34,793 bases of DNA. Source: Kipferlia bialata. Lineage: Eukaryota. The notes under the pieces are model-generated. The model worked only from the letters and a program-made list of their open reading frames with translations, searched no databases and was not told the origin of the DNA. Position numbers and translations under genes: made by a program. Positions 112 through 23,000 of this stretch are shown in pieces; the first letter of the stretch is position 1, and each line of letters opens with the position of its first letter. The DNA is taken from positions 1 through 34,793 of the forward strand of contig BDIP01000064.1 of NCBI GenBank assembly GCA_003568945.1. Direction: 5' to 3'.

Positions 112-3100
112 CTTGAGCTCTGTGGCGTCACTCGACTGTACATTGAGTCTCTCCTGTGCGTCCTTCAGAGCAAGGATCTCCTGGGGTCAGACAGGGAGCA
201 GAGGCATTGATCAGTGTGTATCTACCCGTATACACACACCGCCATATCATAACGCCTTAGTCGTGCAACTGCATGGTATATATAAAGTATATCCAAGTAT
301 ACGGTGTGCAGTCATGAAACACAAACATACCTAGAATGGCAGACCTTGGTGCCTGTCTCAATATACATTGTATTATACACAGAATATACAAGCATGTATA
401 GATGCGTCCGAGACATGCCAAACTCACATTCACATAACCAGTAGATACATGGTAATGTATAGCCACCCCCTCTCTGACCGAGTGTCTCTACAGTATGAGT
501 ATCAGTACATACACGTATCCACACACACTGCACCTGTCTGACCGTGTCTCTCTGCTGCTGCGCCTTGGCCAGCGCCTCCTTGGATGCCTGGGCCTCCCGG
601 TCAATCTCCTCGAGGGCCCTCTTGTGGCTCTCCTCCGTGTCCACCATGGCCTCCTCTCTCTGCTTCAGACGGCGCTGGGGGTGAGGTTCATGAGAGACTG
701 TGAGAGGCATAGGTACCGATAACACTGATGTGATTCAGTTGAACACAATACCCCCATTCTTCCCCCCCCTCCCCCCTACACTACACATCCCCCACCTCTC
801 TGTTTGCTATACTGTGCTTCAGCTCCTCTGTCTCGTCTATCAGGGTACGGAGCTCGGCCTGAACATCAACTGAGTCTCATGTTACATGAACACGAACACG
901 AGACACAATATGAACTCTGACACACAGTCACAGACGCATACACACACAGAGAGAAGAGTACATAATGCAACCCCGAATAGCTAGTACACAGCAGACCCCT
1001 CACCTCTCTCCTGCCAACCCCAGAGGCTGCATTCTTGGACAGCTGAATAGAGCGCACAAGATCCTCCTGGGGGTGAGGCCGAGGGGGGGGGGGGGTGAAG
1101 AACATGTATCAATAAGGTTGTCTGTGGGATTGATATCACTCGTCTGCAAATACACATATATTAATACCTGCAGAGTGTGACTGGCCCCAATTCTGGCATT
1201 GAGGTCTCCCTCTCTCCTAGGGTGAGAGAGAGATAACCCGACAGTGACACACCAGGCAGATGCATACAACAGTAGTGACATGAACACAATCTCCAATCAG
1301 TCTAAACTCAATAGTGGTTATGATACTGATACTGATACTGACTCAGAGGACACATGAATATATATATATATCTGTGAATGTATATATATGTATGATGTTC
1401 CATCATAAATGCATACAACACGGTAGTACCTGCTGAGGTTCGCCAGCCGTGTAGAGAGGTCCCGCTGGTTCCCGGCCACCGTCATCTCTCTCTCTCTGGC
1501 CCTCTCACACATGTACTCCAGCTTGAGCTTCTCATTCTCCGCAGCCTGCAGAGTGAGTGGGTATCCGCGGGAGAGTAGGTATATGGAGTGGGGTAAATTG
1601 AAAATTACAACCTGTTGAGTCGGATCAATCTTGTAAGCAATGTATATGTATTGAAACACGTACAGTGCGCATCCACTACACAGCGCTATACCTTGAGATC
1701 GTTCTTGAGCTTGGCGGACTCCTTCCTGGCGTCCTGTGCGTGCCTGATCTCCTCCTCCTTCTCGGCCTTGAGTCTGGACACCAGGTGCCGCAGGGAGTCG
1801 CACTCGGCCTGGCACGTCAGACAGCCAAGACGGGAACGGAAAGAGAGAGAAATAACATGTACTACACCATAGGGGGTCAAGGCTGAAGTCCTGTATCATT
1901 AAACGTCCACGGGTGGGTGGGATATATATACACACAAATTGTATATCTATGGTGCTGATGTGGCTGCACCTGCATGCGTGTCTGCTCCTCCCTGGCATGC
2001 ACCACCTCGGCATGGGCAGAGTGGTGCCGGGCATGCATCTACGGTGGGTGGGGGATACAATGATAGGTGGGTATACCTATACATCAACACCCTCTGTAAC
2101 TCCACTGGAGTATGTGCCCATGTGCACATAATACATATATGTGAATGCACCTGTTCCTTCTCGTCAGTGAGACGCCTTAACCGGTCGGTCAGAGCAGCCA
2201 CTGGAATCAGTCTGACTGAATAGTAATGAAGAGGAACTTGAACACCTCGCTCCAGCTATACACACTCAATTAATCTCAAACCTATTCTTGGGTGCCCTTC
2301 TCTCCCTTCCAGCCACCCATACACACGTATATGTATATAGAAACCCCCACCTGTGCCCCTGTGCTCTGTGAGGCGCTGCTGGATGTCGCTCCAGGTCTCG
2401 TCTGTCTGACACCCCACCTGGGGCCCCTCCTTGCCCTGCCTGAGGGCATCGGCCAGGGAGGTGGCCCTGGACACATGAGACAGGGGGAGGGGGGGAGGAA
2501 GAGAGAGAGACGTGTTTTAGAACAATGGCACACTCGATACTGCTATGGAGCTCGTCTCTACACTCATGTGTATACATGTATACATAGATCTAGACAGACA
2601 CATATACACCCATGATTATACACACCTTGTGGTCAGAGTCTGTAGCTCCTGTCGGCTGGTTCTGGACACAACTGTCAGTTCCTGGGTCAGAGATACATCC
2701 AAAAGACAGATATATCACACATCTCCATTGACACGGGAGCACTCAGGCCAAACACCCATCATGCACAAGTATGTGTGTAATTGTAACCGTAATGCACTAG
2801 CCCCCACCTGTCTGGCCCTGGCGCTGTCCCTCTCGGCATCGTTCAGCTGGAGACGCAGAGCTGCAACGTGTTGACGCATCTCCAGTGCAGCTGCCTCCAG
2901 CTGCTCCTGGTGTCAGAGAGAGAGAGAGAGAGAGAGGGAGGGAGGGAGAGAGACCAAGAGATAGAGAGAGGGAGAGGCAAGAGTCCAAAGAGGGGTCAGA
3001 GTCTCAGAAGGGGACTTGGGCAGACCAATCACAACCAATAGACTATCGGTGCACACCACCATATACATATACATATGAATGAATGTATAGTCCCAGCCCC

Positions 3101-3187
3101 CGTGCCTGGTCTCTGAGCTGATCCTCCAGCTCATTCATACTGGCCATCAGTTCAGACACCCTGGTCTGGGCAACAGCGGCAGCCAGC
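112..3187 (-). CDS. Multi-exon coiled-coil protein, partial at both ends (13 exons, 363 codons visible)
   Basis: Exons in transcript order: 3106-3187, 2808-2906, 2626-2681, 2351-2466, 2151-2200, 1970-2038, 1692-1808, 1430-1545, 1168-1216, 1004-1066, 796-858, 534-674, 112-180. All splice phases match with no stop. Translation is E/R/Q/L/A-rich and heptad-like (LAAAVAQTRVSELMASMNELEDQLRDQ...AECDSLRHLVSRLKAEKEEEIRHAQDARKESAKLKNDLK...EILALKDAQERLNVQSSDATELK). Family not recognised. Confidence 0.88.
2907..3105 (-). other. GC-AG intron in the coiled-coil gene
   Basis: Minus strand GAC CAG|gcacgg ... ctgacaccag|GAG CAG. This donor gives the phase-0 join. Reading on runs into ATAC-type intronic sequence and a stop. 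Confidence 0.7.
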
Positions 3188-3205
3188 CTGGGGTCAGTAG
3201 GGAGA

Positions 3206-3247
3206 GGGGGGGGGGGGGGGGGGGGGGGGGGGGAGGGGGGGGGGGGG
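3206..3247. repeat. Poly-G tract between the two genes
   Basis: About 40 G with a single A interruption, just upstream (minus strand) of the branch/acceptor at 3188-3198. Confidence 0.95.
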
Positions 3248-3295
3248 CAGGGTCTCAGTCTAGAATGTATGTTAGTCTGTGTATTTATTGTATAG

Positions 3296-3330
3296 GAGCG
3301 ACGCCTCATGTCTAATCTCCCAATCCCTGG
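3296..3330 (+). CDS. Tentative upstream exon of the BLTP1-like gene (SDASCLISQSLG)
   Basis: tatag|G AGC GAC GCC TCA TGT CTA ATC TCC CAA TCC CTG G|gtattg. The phase-1 donor matches the phase-1 acceptor at 3980, giving LISQSLGRGLSILLN. The branch motif is weak. Confidence 0.5.
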
Positions 3331-3439
3331 GTATTGTCCATGTATGTATTTATATACAACCCCCACACTCTACTGAGTCCAAACTAGGATAATACGTCTC
3401 TCACACTTATTATCTCTCCCCGTCAGGCCTATCACCTCC

Positions 3440-3924
3440 CTCTCTCACCCCCTAGGCAGATACCCCATCTATTAGTTGGAACACCCTCTCTCAGAGAGTC
3501 CACCCTACTCCACATACTCCCTCCCCCCCCTCTCCCTCACCTCTCTTAGTCTCTCATCTATATCACCTCTCTCACCCACTAGGCAGGTGTCTGTCCATTA
3601 TGTTTAACATCCCTTCTCTCTCTTCCCCATCTCCCTTGCCTCTCTATTATCTCTCTCATCTATATCATCTCTTACCCTCTAGGCCGGGGTATGTCCATCC
3701 TGTTGAACATCATCTCTCTCTCTCTCACACACACACACACACCTCTCTCTCTCCTGTCTTTCTCTCATGTATCTCTCACCCCCTAGGCAGGGGTCTGTCC
3801 ATTCTGTTAAACAGCATACTCTCTCTCTCTCTCTCTATAAGTATATATTTCCCTCTCTCTTTCACTTATCTCTCACCCCCTATGCCGGGGCCTGTCCATT
3901 CTGTTGAACAGCATGTCCAAGGGA
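3440..3924 (+). repeat. Five tandem ~100-bp copies of acceptor + 5' part of exon 3980-4066
   Basis: Exon-start copies at 3456, 3583, 3683, 3787 and 3884, each after a ctcaccc/cttaccc..tag-like motif and separated by (CT)n tracts. Confidence 0.9.
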
Positions 3925-3979
3925 TACTCTCTCTCTCTCTCTCTATGTATATATATCTCATATATATCTAACCTTCTAG

Positions 3980-6900
3980 GCAGAGGTCTGTCCATTCTGT
4001 TGAACAGCATGTCCAAGGGAGATGCCCTGTTCAGAATTGGATATTGCAACGTATCACCTTTGACAGGTATATATATATATATATATATATAGTATATGTA
4101 TAAATAAATATTTGTATTGTATTCAAGGGACATGCCCTGTTCAGGATAGGGTACTGCAATGTGTCACCCCTGACACGTATGTATCTATCTGTCTATATAT
4201 TTATATTAGTTTACGTAATAGTAACAAGTATATTTATGTAGTAGTACGTGGGTGTACATTTACACTCAGGACGTGTCATGGTTAGGCAGTTTGAGTACAC
4301 CACGGCCTCTGCCAATATCCACATGTCCACACTGAGACTGGAGTTCAAGTACTGGGCACCCAGTGCTACGCAACAGGTATGTATACATATAGATGTGTTA
4401 TTATATTAGATATTTTATGTTGTGTATTTATATGTACCATCGGCATATATATATATATATATCTAATCCTCAGGCCATCTCAGCCCACATTGCCAAGACC
4501 AGTGGGCCACACGGGTTCAGGTACTCTTTTGTACAGTATATTGGTACTATTGTGAATGAGTGTGTTCACCCTTGTCACCCCTCTCACACCCTGCATGTTT
4601 CTGTCTAAGCTCCACCTGCAGAATCTGTGTATATATACATTGATATTCATTACATACAATGTAATATACGCATTGTTAATGCATAGTGCATACTATGCAT
4701 TCTATACTCACCCCAGCATGTTTCTGTCCAAGCTCCACCTGCAGATTGTGGGCCTGGACGTCCATTGTTACAACAACAAGAGTGCATACGAGTACCTAGG
4801 TAATTATCCATCATATCCCCACTTCTGTGCGCACACTGCTGCAACTGAATATACATCGTTGCCATATTATATATATTATTATATGTTTACTATTGTATTC
4901 ATAATACATTCCATTGTTACAACAACAAGAGCGCATACGAGTATCTAGGTAACCACTCCTTTCACATCTCTCTCTAGTATGTGTAACTGTTATAATGCAT
5001 AGACCCCCCCCCCTCCTTCCTCCTCTATCTTCCAACCCTCAGAGACTACCATAATATCTCTTATATCAGTGTCAATTAATTTCAATATCTCCTATTTATG
5101 ATACTGACTCACCCTCAGAGACATTGCAGTGCCACATCACAGACCAGGAGGCACCCACAACTAAGGTAGAGTGTAATATAGAAGAATACAATAGTATAAG
5201 TAGAGTATATATATATATATATTATAGTATGTACCTCTACATATATCACAGCCCAGGAGGCACCCACAACTAAGGTACATGCATTGTCACCTGATGAGCT
5301 CTGCCAAGTCGACTACACCTAATGTGTCCTCTCTTTTGAGATCTCGATGTGATGAATATTATCAGCGTGCATACTATTCATATCTCTCCAACCCCAGGTC
5401 CCTCCCCCTGTCATCAAGGGAGAGATGCCATCCCTCCTGTCACTCCTGGGCAGTGTCTCTTTCGATATCGCTAGGTGTGTAAGTATGTGTATACAATTCA
5501 CACATGTACATATATATGCATTCTCTATCCCTTTCCCCTCCCTGCTAACGGCCTTTAGTACTATCCAGTATACCGTATATGCCTAACCCCCCTCCCCCCC
5601 ACCCGCCCCGTGTGTTCCAACTCCTCTCTGCTAGTATCCTTCAGCACTATCCAGTAGTATATACCCCCCCCCCCTCTGCTAACCCCCTCAGTATCCGCAT
5701 GGTGTGTTCCAACCCCTCTCTCCTAGTAGCACTGAGGATAACAGCCCAGACCATGAAGGGACACCACATATTCACAGAGGACACTAGGAGTCATGATGAC
5801 GTGTACAGGTATTGATATCTATTCATATTAGTTGTAGTATACGCTATGATGTAGTATATACCACATACTAACAGAGGACACACGGAGTCACGATGTTGTG
5901 TACAGGTGTGGTTATCTACATTAACGATGTATAGTATTCTGTATCCGATGCAGACTCAGCGCTGTCCAGATATAGAGATACTACTCTCTTGTGTATAGTA
6001 TATTTGCCATGCTAACACCAGTAATGTATCAGACCTCATGCTGACCGAGTGCTGTGCTGATATGATGGAGAACTGCTACCACGACCCCTTGTTCAAGGGC
6101 AGAGTGATGCAGAAGAAGAGAAGCAAGGTATGCATTATTGTATATAGTCTATACCATGTATATATATGATATATGTATGTATGTATATATACACATATTA
6201 CCTCTGTTCAAGGGAAGAGTGATGCAGAAGAAGAGGAGTAAGGTGTGTACTGGATTGTCAGAGTTACGAGTTGTTGCCTCTCTCCCCCCCCCCCTCGTCC
6301 CTTCTTCCTCTTCTACCCCTACCTCTGACACTCTCCTTTTGTTCAGCACAATTTCTACTGCGTAGTATACAACGCATAGTATTGTTTCCTTCTCTCCTTT
6401 GATAATCTATGCTGTACATTGTATGTGTCTCACTCCAGCGCTCTGCCTTTGTTCAGCCCACACACTATATATTACACTACTTATAGTGGATACTATATAT
6501 ATTCTATGCTGTACATTGTAAGTGTCTCACTCCAGCGCTCTGCCTTTGTCCAGCCCAACTACTGTACTATGTTTCCACATATATATGTCATGAGATTATG
6601 TGAATGCGATACAACTCTCACTCCAGCGCTCTGCCTTTGTCCAGCCCAATGTGCCAATCAGGGCAATGTCGGCATCCAATATGCAGGTATGGGTGGAATG
6701 TATACAACTATATATAGTATCAGTATATTGAATTTGTACTTAGATATCAATCTTATTACATATCAATTGTAATATATGACTATAAGTTCAAGCATCTATT
6801 ACTCACCCTCTATACTCTTCAATTGTACTTACCCCCTTGGGCCAAAGACATGGGAGTATATGTTGCAGTATCTCTCTATATATATCTCTCTTTCTCTATA

Positions 6901-8922
6901 TATATAGATGTTACTGACCCAAGGCCAGGGGCAAGGGTGTCTCCAGGAGGCAGAGAGGGGGCAGGGCAGACAGAGACGTGCTACTGCCACCCACCAGAAG
7001 GTACTTAAGTATTGTATGTATACATATATATATATATGTGTGTGTGCATAACATATGTACACATATGCACTATGTATACATACCGTAACCCCAGGGGCTC
7101 TGTGACCAGGCTGGGTACCACCTATATATATACTATTTGTATGTGGAATATACAGTGTATATCCATTCACCCCAGGGGCTCTGTGACCAGGCTGGGCCCC
7201 CAGTCCAAGCACAAGTCCAGGAGGAGAAGTGGCATCAGATTCGATCAGGTGAGGAACAGATGTATGTATTTCTATCTTAGTTTCTAATCTATAACCCACG
7301 GACCATGAACCACATGTTCCAACAGATTCTTGTGGAATCATGGTATATGTTTGTTGTATTAGTTCTCTTTGGTTCTACCTACTGATGAGTATTGTATTCC
7401 TTACCCCCTAGGCCATGAACCACCGTCTGCAACATATGTCTGTTGTGTATGTGTTATATATTGCATTCCTTACCCCTTAGGCCATGAACCACCGTCTATT
7501 TCTTGAATCCATAATTTGTTAAGTATAAGTGTTTATTATTGGTCTCTTATTCCAAGATGAAGGTAGAATGTATAGCCCTTACCCCTTAGGCCATGAACCA
7601 CCGTCTGCAACAGGCCCTGAATGAGGCAGAGGAGGAAGACCACGCTGACATACTGGGTCTGGAGTGCGATGCACAGGTATTGATTGAAATGATGAATACT
7701 ATTATACTAGTATATTATTGTATATATACCATTACTGTTCATAATGTATGTGGGTGCTCTGGAGTGTGATGCACAGGTACTGGGTATATACGAGAAGGGC
7801 CCCGTGCATTAGTATACAACCATCTATCTATCTATATTCATCTCACCCCAGGCCGAGAAGGGCCCTGCCACAGTGTCTGAGATACCCTACGACCTACTGG
7901 TCAATGGAAGTCAGAGGCCAGCGAGGTATGTGTGCTATATACCCCCCCCTCCCCCCCTTACCATATATATGGGTTCCTAGTATATCCTGTATGTACCCTC
8001 CTCACCCTAGGATCCGTCTGGCCTATGCACCAGCTCTGAGGATCAAGCACATCAAGGACAGCCCAGGTATTCTAATCCATACACTAATTGTATTATTGAT
8101 GATGATATTCATCATACGTATACATATGTATATACTCCCCGGAGGATCAAACATATCAAGGAGAGCCCTGGTATGAGTATGTGAATGACATATTATAATA
8201 CGTATATATACACATACATACCCCCCACACCAGGCATATGCCCCCAGTCTCCCTCCCTCCCTCTTTCTTCGTCTCCCTATATATATCCATTCTCCACTCT
8301 ATACCCGTATCATAGCCTATTATCCTTAGGGATGTGCCTTTGTCCCCCCCCCCTCTCAATCTATATGTATTTCTCATTCTTAGGCATGTGCCCCCGGTCT
8401 AACCCATCTTTCTATCTTTCTCTCTTTCCATTATAATACTATCTCTATCTATCTCTATGTATTTCTCATCCTTAGGCATGTGCCCCCGGTCTGCCCCCAC
8501 CAAGCCAGGCCAGGGGAATAGCCCATCCGTTAAGGTATTTCATGACTGAGCCCTCCACAATATCCCTCTCTCCATATCCCCCACTCTGTCTCCCTATGTT
8601 TATATTCTTACACTATTACTCCACCCGTGGCATGGCCGAGCCCTCCACCATATCCTCCTTTATATATCATCNNNNNNNNNNNNNNNNNNNNNNNNNNNNN
8701 NNNNNNNNNNNNNNNNNNNNNNNNNNNNNNNNNNNNNNNNNNNNNNNNNNNNNNNNNNCTTACCCAAGTACTCCACACGTGTCATGGCCGAGCCCTCCAC
8801 CATATCCTCCTTTGCCGACCTCACTCTCTCTCTCTATATATATGTCCTTATATGCATATACTCACCATTAGTACTCTTCTAGGGGCATGGCCGAACCTTC
8901 AACCATATCCTCCTTTGCCGAC

Positions 8923-8954
<32 letters not shown>

Positions 8955-9286
8955 GTCCTTATATTCATATTCTCACCCTCAGTATTCTTCCAGAGGCATG
9001 GCCGAGCCCTCCACTATATATCATCTCTCTCTCTCCCTATATATACACTAACCCTCAGTATTCTTCCAGAGGCATGGCCGAACCTTCTACTATATCCTCC
9101 TTTGCCGAGAGGGATGTCAATGTCCCAGTGGCAGCTGATGGCATCAACCCCCCAGACTACAACGATGACAATAGGTGGGTATTGGTTTTGAATATTGCCA
9201 GTCCACATCTGACTGTATATGCACATTATTCTATTTCAACCTCATATTCTGTTACCTGCAGCCCCCTGTGGCCGTGTGACATGACC

Positions 9287-9326
<40 letters not shown>

Positions 9327-11199
9327 CACTATTCTTATCCCTCAGGCCCCTGTGGCTGTGTGACATAGTTATTCTCTCGCTGTCTGTCTCTCTCTAGCAC
9401 TGTTAACCCCAGCCCCCTCTGGCTGTGTGACATGGTCTTCTTCGACTCCCACCTGTGGTACTCACCCACGCACGACAAGGTATACAGAGTAAATATATAT
9501 ATGTTCATAGTAATACCTATATATATATACATATGAAATGTATCAGTCTCTGCCCATAGAGTGCTAGGCTAGGCACTCTCTACTTGTGTTAAGTCATCTA
9601 TCTGACACTCTAGGAGAGAGGCCGCATCCAGCGCTTCTTCTACCCCCCTACCTACCAGCCCAAGGAGATATACGAGCCCACCGACTGTGTCAGAAGGCCA
9701 ACCTGCATGACTACAGGTGGGGATGGCTCTCTCTCTCTCTCTCTCTATCTCTCTGTCTTACAAGCATTCGCTTTGTTTGTTTTTCGCTATTGCCCTTCGT
9801 TCAACGCTGCTTAATTCTCACCCCCCAGTTATGCACTTTGAGAATCTCAAGCCCTACCTCTACCCTGCACCCAAGATGGTTGAGAACCCACTCTCCAAGT
9901 CGGTACGCTATATATATTCTAGGCCATTAAAATGTGTGTTATCAGTATGCTATGCATACAAGATGGTTGAGAACTCACTGTCCAAGTCGGTATGATTTCC
10001 AGTGATATATCAATGAACTCTTCTTTCGAAGGAAGGGTAGTTATAGACATTGATATATATTGCTTGATGTTTTGGGTTCTATTATTATCCCGGTCTACAT
10101 CTCACCACCTAGCAGGCCAAGCCGACTTCCCCTGCCTGCCGCATCACATACTCCTTCCGCAACACAGACCTCGACCTCGATCTACTCAGGGACCACCCTG
10201 TACTCAAGTGGAGGATTAATCACGGGGCAGGTATTACACATATGCATATGCATACACATACAGTATGGTGTTTCATTTGACCTGTGTCTGCATCGTCCTA
10301 AAGTGGAGGATCAACCACGGGGCAGGTATCCTGTATTCATATACCATATGCGTTTCTTTTGACAAACAGTCAAAGAGTATCTCCCTTTCCCTCTCTAACC
10401 CTTAGATGGTGCCCATCTGGACATCCCCCAGTATCAGTATCATTACATATATACCCACTTATTCATTTAGACCCATATCGCTGTGTATCCCTTCATCTAT
10501 CTAACATTCTAGATGGTGCCCATCTGGACATCACCCCAGAGGGAGTGGACCTGGACCCAGCATCAGTCCTCAAGGTATAGTATCATTTCGCTTCTGTCTT
10601 CAGTGTCCAGCTTTTCAATTTCATTGTAATCCCTTTCTTCAGTGTTTTCTTCCTCTCTTACCAGCATCAGTGCTCAAGTTATGTATAGACTGTGTAGTTC
10701 AGTATTGTCGTGGTCAGGACTATCGCATAAGGGCTTCTATTATTGTTGTGGATCTCTTACTCTTAGGAGCTCATCACCAATCCGTTTGGCGAGTTCATGC
10801 AGGACAAGGGGCCCAGGGTGCAGGTAGGGGGTCACGGATCGAATACCACTATGAACGACGGCCAATAGTGTTTAGTGTACAATGACATTAGTTGGGTTTT
10901 CTGACGCTAATTTGATGTGAGTTCAATTACATTCATATAAACTGTCTAACCTTCCAGGAGCCCACTGGTCCTCAACACTATGTATCCGAGGCCCCCTCCT
11001 CCCACATACCCTCTCTCTCTATATATAAGTAGAAACATATATATATATTGTATGTATGACTTATTTGACCTTAGGAACCTACGGGTCCCCAGCACTATGT
11101 CTCCGAGGCCCCCTCCTCCCACATTCCATCCAACGCAGACAGGATGAGGAGGCAGCACAGCCTGATACTGACCATGAGGGTATGTCATATATAGATATG

Positions 11200-11230
<31 letters not shown>

Positions 11231-14200
11231 ATATTCCATCCAACGCAGACAGGATGAGGAGACAGCACAGTCTGATACTGACTATGCGGGTGGGTTTACA
11301 CATATACATTCAAATACTATCATCTATTATTCTTTGGGTATATGCGTATATGGTGATGATACACGGAGCATCCTCAATATCAGTCTTACACCCAGGCCGG
11401 CAGTGAGGTCTCCATGCGTATTCCCATGGCTGTTGTGGCTCTGGCCCCATCGCACGGACAGGGCTACACAGTGGGGGGGAGGTAGGACATTTACATATTA
11501 CGTAGTGATTACCACATCACTGTGTGGTATATGTGTATGTATAATTCATTTTCTTATGTTCAGGGACGAGACCTCCTACTCCAACAGGACCGCTGAGGCC
11601 GCCGGACCTGACCCAGGCCAGCTGGTCAACCACGTGTCTGTCACAACAATCAAGGTGGGTTGTGCATACATATGTTTTTCGTAAACTTTCAATAATAGGT
11701 TCAAGCGTTTTGCGGTTATTGAGATGGAATAGACTTCTTGTTCTTCCTTGTTGTGTCCTGACCCCATAGGCCTCTGGTCTCTCTGTGACCTCTCTAATCA
11801 CTTATCATATCGACATTCACAACAAACATGATAGTATGAATGATCCTCCTTACCCCCCAGGCCTCTGGTCTCTCTGTGACCTCCTCTCTGACCAACCATG
11901 AGTTCATGGTGGCAGAGGACTTTGGGATGTCCTTTAAGTAAGTGGCATACTCTATATACTATACCAGTGCTCAGAATATATATATATGTAATCATATTGG
12001 ATCCTTGATGGTAATATTTAATAGTTATTATTCATGAGCTCGTGGTGGCTGAGGAATTTGGCATGTCGTTCAAGTGAGTACTTCGTATAATTTACCTCTG
12101 GTACTATATATATATATATATGAATATATATATGTTCTTGAAGTTATTGGTAAATATGAGTCCTTCTATTTATCCCTCACCATCAGGATGAAGAGTGGCC
12201 TTGAGGTGGATGGTGCCCAGGAGTGGACAGGGGACATCAACCTAGGGGATACTAGACTGGTGCTCACAGCAGACTACATCGCAGAACTCACAAGGTATGG
12301 ATATATACACACACACACACATATATATATATCCGTTCTCGAAGAATAAGTACCTAGAAGAATTGTAGTAGACTACAATCGCAGAGCTCACTAGGTAAGA
12401 CATATAGATGTATACGTATAGTCTTCTATACACTAAATCAAATATTTATATATACATAAGTATTGATATATAGCAGACTACATCGCAGAGCTCACAAGGT
12501 AAGACATATATTGGTATATCACAAATAGATGACTTATCGTCTTCTTCTCTTGTTTTGCGTTGTACTGTTCCTTTCTCACCCCCAGGCTCTTTGCCGACAT
12601 GGGCTCCCCCGACCCCTTTGAGATCCACAAGGAGGGGGTGTCCCCTATCCTCATGTTTGCACCAAGGTATAAACATCAATACATTCCTCCATTGGTCGAT
12701 TCTCTTGTCATCCAGTAATTTGTCGCAGTTTCTCTATGTATATGTTGTTTCTGCTGTATCTTACCCTAGGATCCAGGAGTACAACATCAATCTGACCAAC
12801 TTTGAGATCATTGTCAACGTCAATGAGAACAACGTGACGGAGAGACTCACCAACGTGTCGAGGTGGGTGATTGTAAGATTTTGATTTGAATGAATACAAG
12901 TGTTATTAGGATTGCCAATTACTGTCATCTACATCCCTATATGTTGTTTCTGCCTGCTTGAGGTGGTAAGATGTTTTCCTCACCTCAGGATGGCCAGTGC
13001 CTGTCCCGGTCTGTTCCCCAGGGCAGTGCCCATCACAGAGGACACTGACCCTAACACTAAGGTGGTGATATTCATAGTATATGCATACAGTAAGGACACA
13101 CTATATGTCTTGTCTTAGAGGACACATACCTACTTGTGACCGACAATCCTTATATATGTCTTGATTGTTCCACTCACCCTTCAGCTTGAGCTTGGCTTAT
13201 TCACAATGTGTACATATACATATCTATATGGTATATATATCACTCTCTCACCCCAGCTTGTGCTGCATGGCCCAGAGTGCCAGGTCAGCATGACCATACC
13301 AAGGTCAGTGGCATGTAGTCACACATATATATAGATATACACCTTCCATCACATATCCCTAAATAATTACTATTCCCTTCTAACCCCAAGGAGTCTAAGT
13401 ATACGGATGTTATTCTTTGATATTTCCCTAACCCCCAGGGAGTTCTACAAGGGCGACGCCCCTGTCTCTGAGACTGGCCACCAGATGGGGTCAGTCCCTG
13501 AGCCAGTCACAGACTTCACAATGGAGGTATATATATGTATATATCACAATGGAGGTATCGGCAGTACTATGGCGCGGAATATTCTAAACATGTGAAATTT
13601 GTTCCCAAATCTGTGTCTCACCCTAGGTTGTGCTCCAGTCTGTCTCCGGTACCCTCTGCTATGGTAGACACGTCGAGGCCACGCAGTACATCCCAAGCAG
13701 GTACTTGGTCATCTATGAAGACACCATGTAACTTCATTACTAAACACCTCTCTATATTGTAATTCCATATGTAACATATCGTCTCACCCCTTAGGGCTGT
13801 CCAGCTGCTGGATGTCCACAGACTCAACATCGGGGGGTCATACCTTACGAAGAGGTATGTGCATACATGGGTATTCCAACTGTATTCTGTGAATCTATTG
13901 TACTATTTTATTATTGTATTATATGTTAGGCATATCATCCTTACCCCCAGCAAGGACTGGGCCGGTCCCAAGCCAGAGAACAACGTGTTCTCCCTTGACA
14001 TTGCATGCTTCAAGCCAACTGTCTCTGTGTCAGGTATCAACATTGGATCTAGACTGTTGTCAATAGAGTGTCTAACTCTTCGCTGAATGGAGTTGGACAT
14101 TCCCTCTTCTCAACCCTAGGATATGCCATTATGTACTACTGGAGACTGGTCGACAACCTGTTTGGATCCACCAAGCTCTTGATGAGTCCACAGGTGTGTA

Positions 14201-16130
14201 TTGCAGTATATACTATGATTCCTTGCAGACATGAGTGTGGCGTATTGTGATAATTGTTTGTACCCAATTCCTCACCTCCAGGAGTATATGCTCCTCAACT
14301 GTGTCAACGACAGAGCTGCTGCATACGAGACAAAGGTAAACCCAAACACTCTAATGTCTCCACCATATTTCTACCTGCATATTCCAAAGATTCAACTCAC
14401 TATTCAATGACTTTACCCCTCCTATACGCATGATTACCCACGTTATCTTATTGTTTGTTCTCCTTCATTCCACTGACCAATAGGCCAAGCAGGGCACCTG
14501 TGATACTGACAACCTCGGGTTCCAGATGGAGCTGACTGTGAGGGCCCATGACCTGCTGGGTCTGTTCCCGGTGGTGCAGCTGCACTCAGTCACAGATAGG
14601 TTAGCATGTATATCGATCAATACTATAATAATAGGTAAATATTGCCTCTTGTGCAGCTGCACTCAGTCACGGATAGGTATATTAGCATAATGATTTCATA
14701 CATTACTCTCCATTAGAATATTATTGATATGATACATGATGGGTCTGTTCCCAGTGGTGCAGCTGCNNNNNNNTATTATTGATATGATACATGATGGGTC
14801 TGTTCCCAGTGGTGCAGCTGCACTCAGTTACAGATAGGTATATTAGCATTATTATATCATATATTACTCTCAATTAGAATAATATTGATATATTTGCATA
14901 TTCGTGCCTCACCCCAGGTCCAATCTGTTTGGCATCAGGGCCACCAATGCCAAGTGTGACCTGAGTATGAGACCGGAGTGCATGGACTTGATAGTCAGCT
15001 CTAACCACATCAGGTAACTCATATGTTTGTAGTATCCTATCCTCCTCTGCTTGTAGTTTGTTGAGACCCTTTTGATCCCTAATGTGTTAATGTTTTCTTC
15101 TCACCCCTCAGAGTGCACTCCTCCCTTGATGAGACCCTCCTTGAGTCCTCCTGTGGCAGCATCTCCTTCCTCAACTACCAGTTCCTGACAATGCGGAATG
15201 GCCCAATCAACCATAGGTATGTCAAGGAATCAAAGCATCATCAATGGTAGAACCAACATATTATACATCAATCGAAATGTTTAGTAACCCTATTGGTATC
15301 TCACCCTAGGGTAAAGCACGATGCTTGCCTGGGTACCGTCAAGCTGGACTTCACAGGGAGACAGCTCGGTGCACTGGCCAAGGGTGAGACTTAGCTAGTC
15401 ATATATCATTTAGATACTATTCTGTGACTTCGGGTCCTGCCCTGACTGCCCTCCACTAGCTATCTATTGATACATTAGGATACTGCATGTTTCATTCATT
15501 TACTCACAGGCATCTCCCATCTGATCTCCTCCATGAACCACCCACCCTTCGATGTCCCCCACCATGGGGCAGACAGTGACAGCTACGCAGCCATTCTGTT
15601 TGGAGCAGCTGAGGTATATACACCCGAGATGAATAGTCTCTAATCTTATCAACTCTACATCTGGTATACATTTCATTGTGGAATACATACGATCCTTCTG
15701 ACCCCCAGGCCGTGTCCACCTATGTCTCTAAGGAGGCAGCCAAGGCAGCAGCCAGGGGTGGAAAGGATGGGAACACGGCAGAGGGAGAGGGAGAGGGAGA
15801 GGGAGAGGGAGAGGGAGAGGGAGATGTGCATGTCGATGTGGAACTCCATCCTGAGGAGGACTCAGTGCTGGCAGCATCAGAGCCAGAGCCCCCTAGGTAT
15901 ATTCTAACTCTCACATTAGATGTTCTTATTTGTTATGTTCTCACTCCCAGGCCATTTGTGTCCCTGTACTTCAGATCTGGCCCCGTTTCATGTACGTTCC
16001 TGACCAGCCAACAGCTGCAGGGGTCCATTGCGACACAGCTCGCCATCACGACAGGTATCATGTCCAGTCACTCCTGATATACTCTACACGCATCTCTCTC
16101 TCAATCTCTCTCATACTCAATCTGTATATA

Positions 16131-16162
<32 letters not shown>

Positions 16163-19100
16163 ATCCCTCTCTCTTTTACATCCAGGCTCCCATATGTTTG
16201 TACTCCACATTACATATATATATATATCTAACCCTAAGGCCCCCACCTGTCTGTCCATGCCAGACGAGGCATCAGTCTCCTGGCAGATAACGTGGTCAGG
16301 CCTAGAGAGGTGAGAGGATCTGTCACCTGTCATCATATTTCTGTGCAACAGCGTCCTAGACATGTGTGTATGTATATGTATATGTGTGTACATTCTCACT
16401 CCCAGGGCACTGCATCCCAGCTGAAGGGAGAGGTCCCAGTTGTTGAGGTGCTTGTCCTGGAGCCCGGTGAGAGGATGGGGGTCTTTGCCAGGTATCATAG
16501 TGTCGATATCATTGTGTATGTATATGTACTGTTTATGAACATGTACTATATATGTGTGTATGTGTATTTGTTAATCCCCTCACCCCTTAGGGAGACTGCC
16601 CGTGTCAAGACCTCCATCTCCCTATCCATGACCAGTACCCTAGGGAGGAAGGCCCTCCTCGCCATGTACAAGGTACTACTGATATACATATATGTATTCA
16701 TACATATATCCAAATATCGAAGAATGTATATTCATCGTTTACATTGAGTGTATTTTGTACTCTTCTTCCTGACCCCCAGGAGCAGCGTGACCTTCTGACA
16801 GCCAATAGTGGACCCCTCCCATGGGAGTACACAGTGCCTAGGTGATATATATAGACATATATATTTATATATATAAATTTCGTTAGTGTTTCGTACTTGT
16901 TTCACTTTGTGTATGTGAATGTTTGTGACGACATTGTATCATTTGCCCTCTGACCACCAGGATAGAGGTTAACGCTACCGGCTCTCAGTCTGAGATTGAC
17001 CCTGCTCTGCTGAGGTGAGTTGCCCCCCTCCCCCTATCACGCCCATTGCATCGTCTATCATCAGTGGACTATGGATTTTTCCACTACATCAGTGTAGTAC
17101 TCACAACCAGGTCCCCCTCCTTCTCTAGCATGATGTCGCAGAGTGACACGGAGGACAGCGTCAGGATGCTGCAGTACAAGAGGTACATATACACACACAT
17201 ACAGTATCGTGTAGATTGTGTAATCGCGTGGGGTAACCCCAGGGGCTCCAGTGAGGGCCGTGCTGTGTCTAGCCATGACGACTGGTCCACCAGTGGAGAT
17301 GAACCCATGAGACCGCACTTGATCGGACAGAGGTATACACTGAACACGTATTGAGAATATCTCCCAGGGGTTTGTAAGAGAGAGTCTATTACTCTAATTA
17401 TTAGAATATTCAGTCCCGTGTTCTTATATACCAGGTCTCTATGTATATCTAGAGGTATATTGATCTTACACACCAGGTCTGAGACTGAGGACATGGCCTC
17501 TCCCATTGGCACTTTGAATGTGTCACCCTCATTCAGATCCCACATGGGGTCTCTAGAAGTCCCGCCACCTCCAAACATGTCTCACAGGTGATATCTCATA
17601 CATTCATCTACATAGCCACTTGATCCTATATAATATGTGTATGTCTATACTACTACTATACAATGATCTTACTCACTCCAGCCGTGGCAGGAGTGGCCGC
17701 AGCAGCCGCAGCTCCCGCACCCCAGCCTCCTCTACCATGGACGACGCATACGATGGAGATGAGTTTGTGACGGCATCTGACCTATCATCTATGGGACACT
17801 CGGCAGGTCAGTATGTGTTAGTATCATAGCATGTCGATTACTAGTACTTACGCTCGTACGCCTATGCTGATACCCAGACAGTGCTGACGAGTCTGTTATG
17901 AACATGCCCGTGTCTGGTCAGGGTCTGGCCACCAGTGGACTGCCTCTCTGGATGAACATGGCTAGGTATTATTAATATCTTGAATACCAATTATCATCGG
18001 TCCTATATCAGTACATACATTATCTCCAACCCCCTCAGGATGTGTGCCTCATTCAATATCACCTGTATCAGTATCATTATATGTATATATATGATACCAC
18101 ATATACTATACTATCTCTAACCCCCTCAGGATGGGTGCCGATCTCCCCTTTGACGCCCATGACATGGAGGGGGAGGCAGACGTGGCAGACAGGACGCCAA
18201 GGTATGCTGGCCAGACACCCACTCTTCTTCAATTTCCGTTGTATTTTTGTAGAAATGGTTTTAGTATTAATTAAATTTTCACTTTCAAGTACTATAATTC
18301 AAATTCCTTTGACCTTTAACCCTCCAGGGCCGGTGACAGGCGCAGCAGTGGAGTCGGCATCAGGGAGAGAGAGAGGGACGGCCGGGTGGCTGAGTCTGAT
18401 ATTGCATTCCTGAGACCTGTCTGCTATGCAGTCGGGGCCACAATGTATCTGCTCAACCAGGTAACTCACTTCAGTATATAACATCAGTGCAATAGTGTTA
18501 TAAGAATGATTGTGATATTTCGTAATATGACTCTTGGCTCTCTCACTTCTAGGACAAGTACCCCCTCACCGAGGTGTTCCCAGACATCAAGGAAGAGGAC
18601 CTCGAGGAGGGTGAGGGGGAGGCAGAGGAGAGGCGCATTGTCAAGATTGACTTCCCAAAGCTCATCAGCCTCGACTTTGTACCTGCAGCAGTGTCAGATA
18701 TCGTGGCAATTCTCTCAGGTTAGCGATGTTCTAACCAACCATCCGTTCATACCATTTGTGTCTTTCTGACCATCACCCCTAAAGATGTCCAAGCATTTAT
18801 CCCTGTTGTATCTATTTAACCCTCACCCCTAGAGATGCTCCACGCTGCTCCATCCTCCCTTGAGATGTGCTACGAGATCATCAAGAGTAGCTACCACAGG
18901 TACTTACCGTGTATACTGATATTCCATATTAGAGTGTTTCAAATACATATCAATTGGGTTACTATTCTCTTCTCACCACTAGAACCGATGCCAAGAAGAG
19001 CATAGACCGCAGGGTATCTAGCCTCAGAGCAGCAGAGAGAGCTGCGAGGGCTCTGGTTAGGTTCGTGTTCACTCATAAATGGTACTCGTGTACAACCTTA

Positions 19101-20037
19101 CTACTTGATACTGATACCCATACATATATTAATATCCCCAACACCAGATACCGTGGCGCTACTGTGGACGCTGAGTCTATGGACACACTCAGAAAGATCA
19201 AGGAGTCTAAGGTGATTATTATGGTATTTCTATATATGTATGAAGTTAATATATATATATATTGACATCCTATCCAACCTCCAGATGTGTCTGTCTGTCA
19301 CTCTGGTCGGTGCTGTCCTCTCTGCCCACTCAGAGCACTACAACTCTGGTGGTCTATCTTCTTGTGACTCTGGTTCACAGGCTAGACCTGCCCATTCTGA
19401 GCCCCCTCTCTTCTCAGTCTATCTGGCAAGGGTATCTGCCACCCTCAACATGGCCACCAAGCACAGAAGCACAAAGTGAGCGCCTATAGCATTCATTTAC
19501 TACACACATACTCATCGCGTAGTTACTTACTTACCTCCAGGTACACTGTGCTGCGTAACTTTGCAGTCTCCGACCCCCGTCTTGGTCTGCCCTCCCTACC
19601 CAAGCTGGAGAGCGAGACATACCAGATCGGGGTGGACCTCTCAGGTCAGTGGTTACATATATGTACATATATGTATGTATATACATGTGTGTGTGTTCAC
19701 AGTCATGCTGGTTTTCTCCCTTGTTTTTAGACGGTATTCTCTAACCCCCAGTTGGGCACCTTATCGTGTCCACCCCTGTGTATGAGTCCCTGACTGGATG
19801 TGTGGCACTCCCGGTGGAGTTCATCGGAGAGCGTGTTCTCTGCTACCCTGACAGACTGCCCCAGGTACATTCTTACACGATACTATATAAGAGTGTAAAG
19901 AGCCATACTTACCGCCAGGCCCCATCCGTGGTTGGCGCCATATCCGACGCATCTCTCTCCTATGCCTATAACAAGGGCGAGGAGGGTGGGACAGAGCTCC
20001 AGCACAGTGGTCTTCTCACTGCCAACCGGTGCGAACA

Positions 20038-20070
<33 letters not shown>

Positions 20071-23000
20071 CGTGTAGCTGCATTAAGTGTGAGTGGATAT
20101 GTTCTTACTGTAGGGTGTTTGGCGCCATGGGTAGCCGTGGTCTCTTCACTGTCCTGCGTGCCAGTCGGAAGCTAGCCACAGAGATTGACACTGCTGTCAA
20201 GATGGTGCAGGTGAGGATTGGTTTCAATATACATCATTGTCATTGTATGGTGCAGGTGAGGATTCCCAAGATATGCACCATTGAGTGCTATTGTATTTAC
20301 TTTGTATTAGTTGTGGTTTCTTGAGAATTGTTCTTTGACCCCCAGGGCGCCCAGGCTCTGCGCTCCTGCTACGTGGACGCCTTTGAGTACGTGCTGACAT
20401 TCAGCCATGACAGGCGGATATCAATGGCAATGACGCAGAGAAACAGGTTCGAATACCTTCTTATTCCTTCTCATCCTGGATGTGTTTCTACTATTCTAAT
20501 TCTCAGGCCTGTTCAGCTTAGCAGAGTGCTTCAGAACATGTACTCGGCACCCTCTAGAGTCAAGAGAGAGGACTTCTCGAGGTGAGTTCGGAAAATTACA
20601 TGTTGATGATCACATCTTTGATGGCGCATCTCTCTTCTTGTATATATTCGGATAATAGTGTTCTGAATACTCTCTCATTCTAGGGTTGTCAAGCATGCCC
20701 AGAGGCTGTACTCCCAGAGAGAGGAGCTGGGGAGGTCGAGGTCCCGGAGTGAGGTACGTATACATATACCTCAATGATGGATATTAGTCCTATTTGATTG
20801 CATTGTGTGATGACTTTACCCTCAGGCTGACACTTGCATCGGGTCCTACATTGATGAGAACCAGGCAACCGTGGGAAACAGCCTCAACCTGAACCTGTTC
20901 ATTGACAGGTAACTGATATGGGTATCCTATTGCCTCTTAGAATTTACATCTCTGTTCTGACCACAGTACTCTTCGTATCCTTGGACGTGACGCCGAGACA
21001 GACAATGTGTTTGCCGAGGCCATTCCGGCCACTATCAAGTACCCGTCCAAGGTAATGTGCCACCATTATTATATATCTCCCTTATCCAGTATTCATGTCA
21101 CTCTGGGATCTTGCAGCCAATATCCCTTACCAACAGGCGTGCTCCGCTCTGAGTGCCGCTCTGGCCAATGGCCGTGTACGCTTCTCCCTGTCCACCACCC
21201 AGCTGGAGCTGTACATGATGAGCACATACCAGGTTGGATTTCAATATAGTCTCTATCTCCATTTATAAAATCTAGTACTCATTTCAATTGGTATTGTGTG
21301 TGTCCTCATACCAGGCTGAGTTGGATGGCCGTGAGACCACCATTCCCCTGTGCATGGTGTCCATGAACAGGTACAGATAATGAGAGGAGAACACATGTGG
21401 ATTACATATGTACTGATAATGAAGTATATACTCTTGATACTTGCCCCCTGTTCATGGTATCCATGAACATGATGTAGATAACCAAGACCTACTATTTTTG
21501 CATACAGGTATGTACTTTACTTTATGCCGATATGTATTGACATCTATTCTCACCCCTAGACCCTTTGTGCATGTCCAGGGCCACATACCAGATGCCTCTG
21601 CAGACACTAGTGCAGAGGCAGAGGCTGAAGCGGAGGGAGATGAGGGAGTGTCTCCCACTGAGGCTGACAATCCACCTGACTCCATGCCACCTGCCACACC
21701 CCTCAAGGTACATATACCCACTCTACACGATAGTAAATTCTTCCCGGTTGTGTCTGGTTGCCTTTATACCAGGTTCAGTATGGGACTGAGCCCAACTCAG
21801 AGGAGAGGCACCCCTGGGATAGTCCTGATGCACAGAGGGTGTCAGAGCCACTGCCCCTTGACAGATACCCAGTTGTCACTCTTGTGGCACAGGTAGGATC
21901 AGACATAGTTATCTGTACGAGTATTTTGCATAGTATCCACTCTCTAATACCCTCAGGTGTCCGACCCTCTATTTGTCTTCAGCGCTCATGCCATACCTGA
22001 GCTGGCCCAGATCACCAACGACCTCTCTGCGGCTGAGAAGATACTGGGTGGCCATGGTGATTCCTCGCCCTCTCTGGATGGTGTCCCCTCCCCCATGTCC
22101 CCTGCACCCCTCGGAGGCCTCACAGACACAGGCACCATGGACCGCATGCACAGAGAGGACAGTGACATCGACCTCGACCCACCCACACCCTCACCCACAC
22201 AGGGGCAGCACATACCCACACCCCCTCTCTCCCTTACACTATGGGACGCCATGGGTGGGATAGAGGGCATCAACGCATCTGTATGTCTCCGTACACACGA
22301 CCTTGTGTTCTCAGTGCCCTCCAACGGGGCCAGTGTGGTTGGTACCCTTGCCAGCTCCAGTATCCTGGTATCCCAGGACTACTCGAAGGTATAGAGAGTA
22401 GATATGTATCCTGATTGTGGATATCATTATTCCAGTGACCTCGTTCTAACGTCCAGGTGTCTGCACCTGCCTCGAAGCCATCCACTGTTAGAGAGGCCGC
22501 TAGCCCTCGGCCCTCTGTCTCTAAGAGAGAGGGAGAGAGAGGCAGTGAGCGTGGCAGAGACATAGCTGTCCGTATGTCTAGCAGCATCCGTATCACACCT
22601 GCTGAGCCCAGTCTCTCATCTGACCAGGACTCAGTGCATACGGAGGAGGTTGATATGGAGGGGGACGTTAGCAGCGACACACACACTCCGTCACAGGTGA
22701 GTGTATGTGTAAATCCATTCATATATGTACATTCTTTGTGAATATGTCAGTAATTATCCATTGAAGACAAGGCCTAGAGCTGACCTTCTAGGAGCCAAGT
22801 CGTGACTCTAGTGATCTACACGACGAGTCCAACCCCTCCCACTGTGCCTACACCCCACCCACGCGCAACCCCCTCGCCCCCATCAGAAACGTTGCAGCTG
22901 TGGTCGTTGGGGCCAGCATGTGTCTGATCGATGTCCCTAATGCCACAGCCAATGACGTCATTGAGAGCAGAGAGTGGGTCAGGCTCGACACGAAGCTGGA

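Follow-up and report, generated by a model that had tools for sequence, protein, structure and literature searches.

The exon at positions 11075-11179 of a large gene of Kipferlia bialata lies between two partial copies of itself, one in each of its flanking introns. The stretch under study, called here the window, comprises the 34,793 nucleotides of contig BDIP01000064.1 (assembly GCA_003568945.1, positions 1 to 34,793, forward strand). On balance, we take the two pieces to be unused partial copies of the exon ends with their splice signals, probably produced by two separate boundary duplications, of the kind known as "mirage" repeats. The copies would thus belong to the introns, and the protein would be encoded by the inner exon only.

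Exon 5 and its two flanking copies

We call the working exon exon 5, the left copy L1, the right copy R1, and the two spacers x and y. The layout of the locus is as follows.

10946..10957, + strand: decoy outer acceptor ctaaccttccag with a CTAAC branch-site-like motif (sequence; skipped by the RNA joint from 10821 to 11073)
10958..11008, possibly 19 codons to 11014/11016, + strand: L1, copy of the first 17 codons of the exon, in the upstream intron (repeat finder, alignment, codon comparison)
11017..11074, + strand: spacer x, simple repeats of the (CT)n, (TA)n and TG-rich kinds that lead into the region of the working acceptor (..atttgaccttag) (sequence)
11075..11179, + strand: working exon, 105 nt, 35 codons (EPTGPQHYVSEAPSSHIPSNADRMRRQHSLILTMR) (RNA contig; frame open across 11 spliced exons)
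11180..11232, + strand: spacer y, a (TATG)n(TA)n microsatellite preceded by the working donor gtatgt (sequence)
11233..11289, + strand: R1, copy of the last 19 codons of the exon, in the downstream intron (repeat finder, alignment, codon comparison)
11290..11295, + strand: decoy outer donor gtgggt (sequence; unused in the RNA contig)

The repeat finder pairs 10956-11013 with 11073-11130 (family D4, 86% identity, spacing 117) and 11123-11181 with 11233-11291 (family D3, 93% identity, spacing 110). When the exon is aligned locally against its flanking introns, L1 and R1 score 78 and 98, the maxima of 100 shuffles being 22 and 19; judged by these alignments, the likeness of both pieces to exon 11075-11179 is far above chance. 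Over the exon parts, the identity amounts to 44/51 for L1 and 53/57 for R1 and, codon by codon, the differences are silent throughout, with 7 in codons 1-17 (L1), 4 in codons 17-35 (R1) and no replacement. The working exon is bordered by the acceptor ..gaccttag and the donor gtatgt, while the gtgggt hexamer that follows R1 serves as a real donor at 11655 and 12863. Neither inner end carries GT or AG: L1 gives way to (CT)n/(TA)n, and a TA-type microsatellite (11187-11234, period 2, 24 copies) precedes R1. A preliminary description had given the two pieces with an intact acceptor before the first and gtgggt after the second, had counted 11 synonymous and no non-synonymous differences, and had seen only microsatellites at the inner ends. 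The letters of 10500-11800 agree with it throughout, and our codon count and the inner ends bear it out.

L1 may reach 11016, where three more codons (ATA CCC TCT) likewise read Ile-Pro-Ser; L1 and R1 would in that case share a 9-nt overlap containing three silent differences. This extension could be due to chance, as the (CT)n tract begins there (a rough estimate is about 1 in 20). With regard to a mobile-element insertion that duplicates its target site, only AT is certainly common to the end of L1 and the start of R1, the 9-nt candidate overlap being mismatched at 3 places. Spacer x does not resemble the 66 nt that precede L1 (p 0.41 and 0.74), and around exon 5 the intron parts of the supposed repeat units are unalike (p 0.41, 0.74 and 0.36). 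The inverted repeats found at the locus by the repeat finder consist of TA-type simple sequence only. In one of them (I20), the TA-rich spacer parts 11023-11048 and 11209-11234 are 77% complementary, and their pairing in the pre-mRNA could loop out the exon; it is probably a chance effect of simple sequence.

The order of the pieces was compared with assembled contigs from X1 and X2, two sequencing runs of one sample, matched to 9800-12900. X2 is termed RNA solely because its contig has GT..AG joints. An X1 contig of 1492 nt (depth 454.5) spans 9800-11183 with no differing letter, and runs through L1, the junction of L1 with x, and the inner exon; another, of 893 nt (depth 452.2), spans 11246-12096. 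L1 and the inner exon share an identical run of 23 letters at the longest, and the contigs were built from 31-letter words, so the contig path cannot have been stitched from two loci. A third X1 contig, of 56 nt (depth 414.6), agrees with the R segment at all but one of its last 35 letters and, if set on R1, overlaps the 893-nt contig by 30 letters; it would represent the junction of the (TA)n tract with R1. The nested order claimed in the preliminary description, with the inner exon between L1 and R1, is therefore read without mismatch on its left side, and follows by inference on its right side. The joined outer version that it proposed to search for did not turn up: no DNA or RNA contig of the two runs links 11008 to 11233. 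The simple outcome that would have contradicted it, two alleles with one intact exon each, is not seen in these contigs either.

X2 provides one contig of 3802 nt with 7 joints, all GT..AG, including the joint from 10821 to 11073, and in its record 11073-11178 directly adjoins 11395-11479. Thus, the inner exon is spliced and both outer halves are intronic. Moreover, 11 exons joined by coordinates give one open frame. We also matched reads over 3400-23399; these matches are dominated by simple repeats, and all 15 joints listed are such noise, with 42 more beyond the list. Canonical splicing would not allow the outer halves to be translated: L1 is not followed by GT nor R1 preceded by AG, and a TAG stop lies in frame in x as well as in y, where it would be met if the outer acceptor or the outer donor were used. 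These stops suggest that the copies are tolerated decoys rather than coding parts, and no function is needed for them.

Boundary copies across the gene

Exon 5 is one of many exons of this gene that are echoed in their introns. In the RNA-confirmed stretch 9826-12862, 6 of the 11 exons have copies of one end, with its splice site, in the adjoining intron, and the other 5 have none. These copies are 10 in total (3 acceptor-side, 7 donor-side), with scores of 34-98 against shuffle maxima of 19-27. Three exons of this stretch are two-sided (those starting at 10513, 11075 and 11861), and one-sided copies accompany the exons ending at 9902, 10230 and 12294. Apart from exon 5, the best described two-sided cases are the following.

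10403..10682, + strand: second two-sided case, exon 10513-10574 with acceptor-side copy 10403-10431 and donor-side copy 10661-10682 (alignment)
11758..12079, + strand: third two-sided case, exon 11861-11937 with copies 11758-11792 and 12033-12079 (alignment, RNA joints)
3583..4177, + strand: predicted exon 3980-4066, preceded by a stack of four acceptor-side copies (period about 100) and followed by the donor-side copy 4124-4177 (boundaries predicted)

In the first of these, the GT of the donor-side copy 10661-10682 is now TT (at 10679). The RNA joints of exon 11861-11937 run from 11652 to 11859 and from 11937 to 12187. As a loose end at this exon, an X1 contig follows the window to 11795, the end of the left copy, and then continues into unrelated G+C-rich sequence. 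At the predicted exon 3980-4066, the same 7 letters end the nearest left copy and begin the right copy.

Further cases, with predicted exon borders, are found at 3583-4177, 4594-4948, 5245, 5860, 6202, 6434/6531, 8591-9108, 14651-14837, 18021, 24080, 28117/28217, 30143 and 33056. The comparison of the window with itself gives 49 direct-repeat pairs less than 1500 nt apart and, with simple repeats masked, no repeat pair of at least 400 nt apart. The copies mostly lie 87-137 nt from their originals, and the introns, once the copy units are subtracted, measure 81-134 nt. The copy attached to the exon is always the one used: splicing takes the first donor in 6/6 cases and the last acceptor in 3/3. 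In the two-sided exons (n=5), the copies together cover 1.08, 0.82-0.94, 0.73, 1.03-1.10 and 0.83 of the exon. The younger copies retain common intron sequence (33017/33121, 6402/6499, 12367/12472), which shows the tandem duplication of a unit that spans the boundary.

Several side observations concern the distribution and the surroundings of these copies. On the + strand, they are dense among the short exons (3500-12500) and sparse among the long ones (125-433 nt, from 17679 on). A stack of acceptor-plus-exon-start copies (gcatggccga...) at 8591-9108 is broken by an 87-N gap, and 8607-8661, before this gap, is 91% like 8759-8813, just after it. A 7-N gap (14767-14773) sits in a stack of three to four donor-end copies of the predicted exon ending at 14599 and is bordered by a perfect 48-nt duplicate (14719-14766 = 14774-14821); X1 contigs end at 14741 and restart at 14799. 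The duplicate 14719-14821 is probably an unmerged contig overlap within a real repeat. Finally, nearly all acceptors of 10090-12770, real and decoy, have a CTNAC-like motif (CTAAC, CTTAC, CTCAC, CTGAC); with only 5-10 nt from this motif to the AG, branch site and acceptor are unusually close together.

Silent differences and the origin of the copies

The codon comparison used 17 clean ungapped copy pairs, each set against the used exon (204 codons). Left out were two copies with indels (10403-10431 and 12367-12397), one copy at an N gap, the old distal copies 3688-3716 and 3583-3609 (each with 1 silent and 3 replacement differences) and all 7 copies of ambiguous frame (5 silent, 1 replacement). 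The 17 pairs have 52 silent and 11 replacement differences, i.e., a proportion of 0.364 of the silent sites (pS) and of 0.023 of the replacement sites (pN), and a ratio of replacement to silent divergence (dN/dS) of about 0.05. Restoring the two old distal copies gives 54 silent against 17 replacement differences, and 25/31 codon differences are silent in the RNA-confirmed subset. If the exon drifted silently while the copy decayed freely, the expected silent share would be 0.37-0.45, against the 52/63 observed (P 2e-13 to 7e-10); the silent excess is thus beyond a simple model of decaying fossils.

Third-position mutational bias can be rejected as its cause. Indeed, 4-fold codons show 11 transitions and 11 transversions in third position, and 2-fold codons 17 and 1 (Fisher p 0.004), a contrast which argues for selection on the amino acid rather than for a positional bias of mutation. 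The exon parts are identical at 566/625 positions, against 180/510 in the adjacent 30 nt of intron. The differences are also unevenly placed: in exon 5, the 16 central codons on the breakpoint side are free of them, and the 19 outer codons have 10 over 13 silent sites (p 0.00015). When 20 copies are pooled, the half on the splice side has 44 differences and the half on the breakpoint side 21 (p 0.006), a contrast that is partly a bias of alignment trimming. Copy and exon appear to differ as two working versions of the gene would if they had separated long ago. In a limited literature search, we found no paper that treats how well such copies are conserved at the codon level, or that describes an exon rebuilt from copies on both sides.

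The many one-sided copies in the gene indicate that the elementary event is the duplication of a single exon-intron boundary, and two-sided exons are then expected occasionally. Since the two-sided coverage is spread from 0.73 to 1.10, the meeting of L1 and R1 in the middle of exon 5 needs no special event. Each event would have copied about 90-140 nt across one boundary next to the original, with a simple-sequence tract at the far junction. Splicing would then pick the site contiguous with the exon body, so that the copy would join a longer intron and leave the protein unchanged. The preliminary description spoke of a complete second, recoded exon; the halves do spell a whole exon silently, and they are most simply read as two independent boundary copies that meet.

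The weakest step of this scenario is the template, which would be a diverged working version of the gene, on the homologous chromosome, and not the same DNA strand. We infer such a template because the differences are nearly all silent and the intron flanks cannot be aligned. A break would arise in the exon; one end would invade the homologous chromosome within a block of identity; about 100 nt would be copied across the splice site into the intron, up to a simple repeat; and joining to the other end would take place without annealing. Such a repair would give a one-sided copy, silent differences from birth, foreign intron flanks and identity on the breakpoint side. It would also give near-coincident breakpoints, from two events in the single identity block of exon 5. 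According to this tentative proposal, which we consider rather doubtful, the copies are scars of break repair from a strongly diverged homologue, copy and exon end preserve two working alleles, and the "sandwich" of exon 5 would reflect two breaks in the only long identity block between such alleles.

Several points weigh against boundary duplication, with or without a homologous template. The outer halves meet within 0-9 nt, which is more directly explained by a single insertion. A tandem origin at exon 5 is argued only from younger neighbours, its own intron parts being unalike. No single X1 contig spans the (TA)n tract 11184-11245, and the X1 contigs, which rule out a scaffolding error, may be the assembled sample rather than independent DNA. 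Rare use of the decoy sites is possible, as the splicing evidence is one assembled RNA contig and contigs drop rare forms. Regarding the template, a homologue would need alleles that differ at about a third of their silent sites. To our knowledge, such a divergence is far above the usual diversity of any species. Moreover, no second haplotype is seen in the X1 contigs.

A single event is the main rival to two boundary duplications, and we regard it as possible without thinking it likely. An intact outer exon would have been broken at the Ile codon by a 224-nt insert that carried a second version of the exon, flanked left and right by some 60 nt of its own intron. A templated insertion in break repair or a two-step template switch could have produced it. 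This would account for L1 ending and R1 starting at the same codon, with 0-2 nt (AT) in common, for the simple repeats at both ends of the insert, and for the fact that both halves differ from the inner exon only silently. The outer introns would then be ordinary ones, of 134 and 106 nt, and the 7 letters shared at the predicted exon 3980-4066 resemble a target duplication. However, the common one-sided copies (of the exons ending at 9902, 10230 and 12294, and more elsewhere) cannot be explained in this way, and at two other two-sided exons the copies fall short of the full exon by 13 and 17 nt. L1 is also about twice as diverged as R1 (7/51 vs 4/57), and a 9-nt overlap with 3 differences, if L1 extends to 11016, misfits a target duplication made at one moment. 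The earlier proposal that one exon version was split by the insertion of another hence stands in part: the arrangement is nested, the inner exon is spliced and the outer pieces look shaped like coding sequence, but the proposal as worded does not fit a gene in which one-sided copies are common.

The silent excess could also mean that the copies are kept as spare parts, selection maintaining them codable because collapse of the array, somatic or germ-line, regularly puts a copy into the expressed exon. The low dN/dS at a pS of 0.36 would fit this, and the private changes of near copies (3889-3924, 3787-3817, 14651-14676, 14789-14837, 6434-6460) are of the silent type, while the distant copies 3688-3716 and 3583-3609 have 3 replacements each, as if constraint had been released. 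Mirage clusters are moreover unstable in length, with somatic instability at amphioxus Adh3, in the portions of the report available to us (PMC3087553). We nevertheless find this explanation unlikely. Near copies 10403-10431 and 12367-12397 contain 1-nt indels that break the frame, one decoy donor is dead (TT at 10679), and germ-line collapse alone would exert no selection on a lineage that has not collapsed. No collapsed form is found in the DNA or RNA contigs either, although contigs would drop rare forms.

It is very improbable that the nested order exists in no molecule and that the assembler interleaved two diverged haplotypes or reads of a faulty library: the window is indeed a gapped scaffold (N at 8672-8758 and 14767-14773) with a perfect 48-nt duplicate around its 7-N gap, and one amphioxus mirage was misassembled in a draft genome according to the part of the report available (PMC3087553), but X1 contigs cross L1, the L1/x junction and the inner exon without mismatch at a depth (454.5) that matches their neighbours (452.2, 458.6), along a path that identical runs of at most 23 letters do not allow to be stitched from two loci, and no contig joins L1 to R1.

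Two other candidates were rejected. A paralogue in the same genome, as a template, would put the 224-nt inner piece twice in the DNA, and the X1 contig crosses the L1/x junction unbroken at single depth, which argues against it. Frequent gene conversion between copy and exon would be expected to erase the silent differences as well.

Gene context, meaning and known systems

The 144-codon exon 21954-22385 of the gene finds no homologue among proteins of 253-2000 residues, and Pfam, searched with 43 plus-strand frames, gives nothing above any cut-off. A protein atlas offers weak leads to bridge-like lipid-transfer proteins (Csf1/BLTP1, VPS13, Hobbit; scores 0.89-0.93, low recognition), and the product may be such a protein. 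Upstream, 312-3369 holds open frames on the minus strand, coiled-coil-like and rich in Glu, Gln and Arg, which suggest a second gene; the self-comparison of the window reveals no boundary copies there. A run of about 49 G (1-49, self-match 1-25 / 25-49) opens the window and may be an artefact of sequencing chemistry at the scaffold end.

For annotation, the lesson is that gene finders and short-read assemblers can be led astray by such exon echoes and their decoy splice sites, and that the "recoded second exon" is not to be annotated as an alternative exon. Beyond this, the intronic copies look as if their protein sense were guarded, with a dN/dS of about 0.05 and near-missing 2-fold transversions next to scrambled intron flanks. 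If the copies were templated by a homologue, the gene would be a fossil record of allelic diversity, at about one silent site in three, which would imply a hyperdiverse organism or very long-lived haplotypes; this would also be a so far undescribed birth mechanism for mirage repeats. Should the silent excess stem from repair on a diverged homologue, or from selection by way of array collapse, the repeats would provide a tool for studying the birth and lifespan of duplications.

Mutually exclusive exons are two versions of one exon that lie close together in one gene. Here, unlike in such pairs, the outer version is divided between L1 and R1, neither of which has both splice sites, and its peptide is that of the inner exon. 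L1 has no donor, R1 has no acceptor, and there is no RNA joint at either of them, so we rejected a mutually exclusive or alternative exon pair.

Internal gene duplication can create introns by the duplication of AG|GT sites (the Rogers model and a six-genome survey, as cited in the part of PMC3087553 available to us). As in those accounts, short intragenic tandem duplications overlap splice signals here. Unlike in them, no new intron is formed, pre-existing introns are lengthened, and the copy borders are not AG|GT sites. Intron gain by this route was rejected, since what each copy repeats is an end of its own exon, together with the splice site already there.

Repeated donors are also known from intron 7 of human F7, where a 37-bp minisatellite has its first unit across the exon 7 boundary and only the most upstream donor is used, according to the excerpt available (PMC1557585). 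In both genes, potentially functional donors are repeated after the authentic one and the first is used, here in 6/6 donor-side cases. As far as that excerpt goes, F7 has short identical units in a perfect array, whereas K. bialata has single diverged copies about 100 nt off, and acceptor-side copies as well.

The closest system is that of the mirage minisatellites of amphioxus, described in Adh3, in the globins BflGb6/BflGb9, in troponin C and in PGBD5 (Ebner et al. 2010, PMC3087553; PMC3902484). In the portions of these reports available to us, the copies are in tandem and span a 5' or a 3' boundary, many keep AG or GT, and splicing is undisturbed (PMC3087553); the PGBD5 gene of the lancelet has 60- and 108-bp repeats across splice sites (PMC3902484). 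Their units measure tens to about 160 bp (10-160 bp period), to be compared with the spacings of 117 and 110 nt around exon 5. The copies of exon 5 likewise lie head to tail and consist of a splice site, with acceptor and donor intact, and the adjoining exon end; they stand in the intron directly beside their exon with a short period. Their extra AG and GT are silent, the RNA contig using 11075 and 11179 and skipping 10958 and 11289. Three differences emerge from the same portions of the reports. Here, a single exon has both of its boundaries duplicated, and the two copies between them account for the entire exon. At exon 5, the intron parts of the units can no longer be aligned. Finally, mirage units are 81-100% identical, with codon positions left unmentioned there, while the differences between our copies are nearly all silent. 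In conclusion, boundary copies form an already known class, of which this gene is a further case with one unusual quantitative feature.

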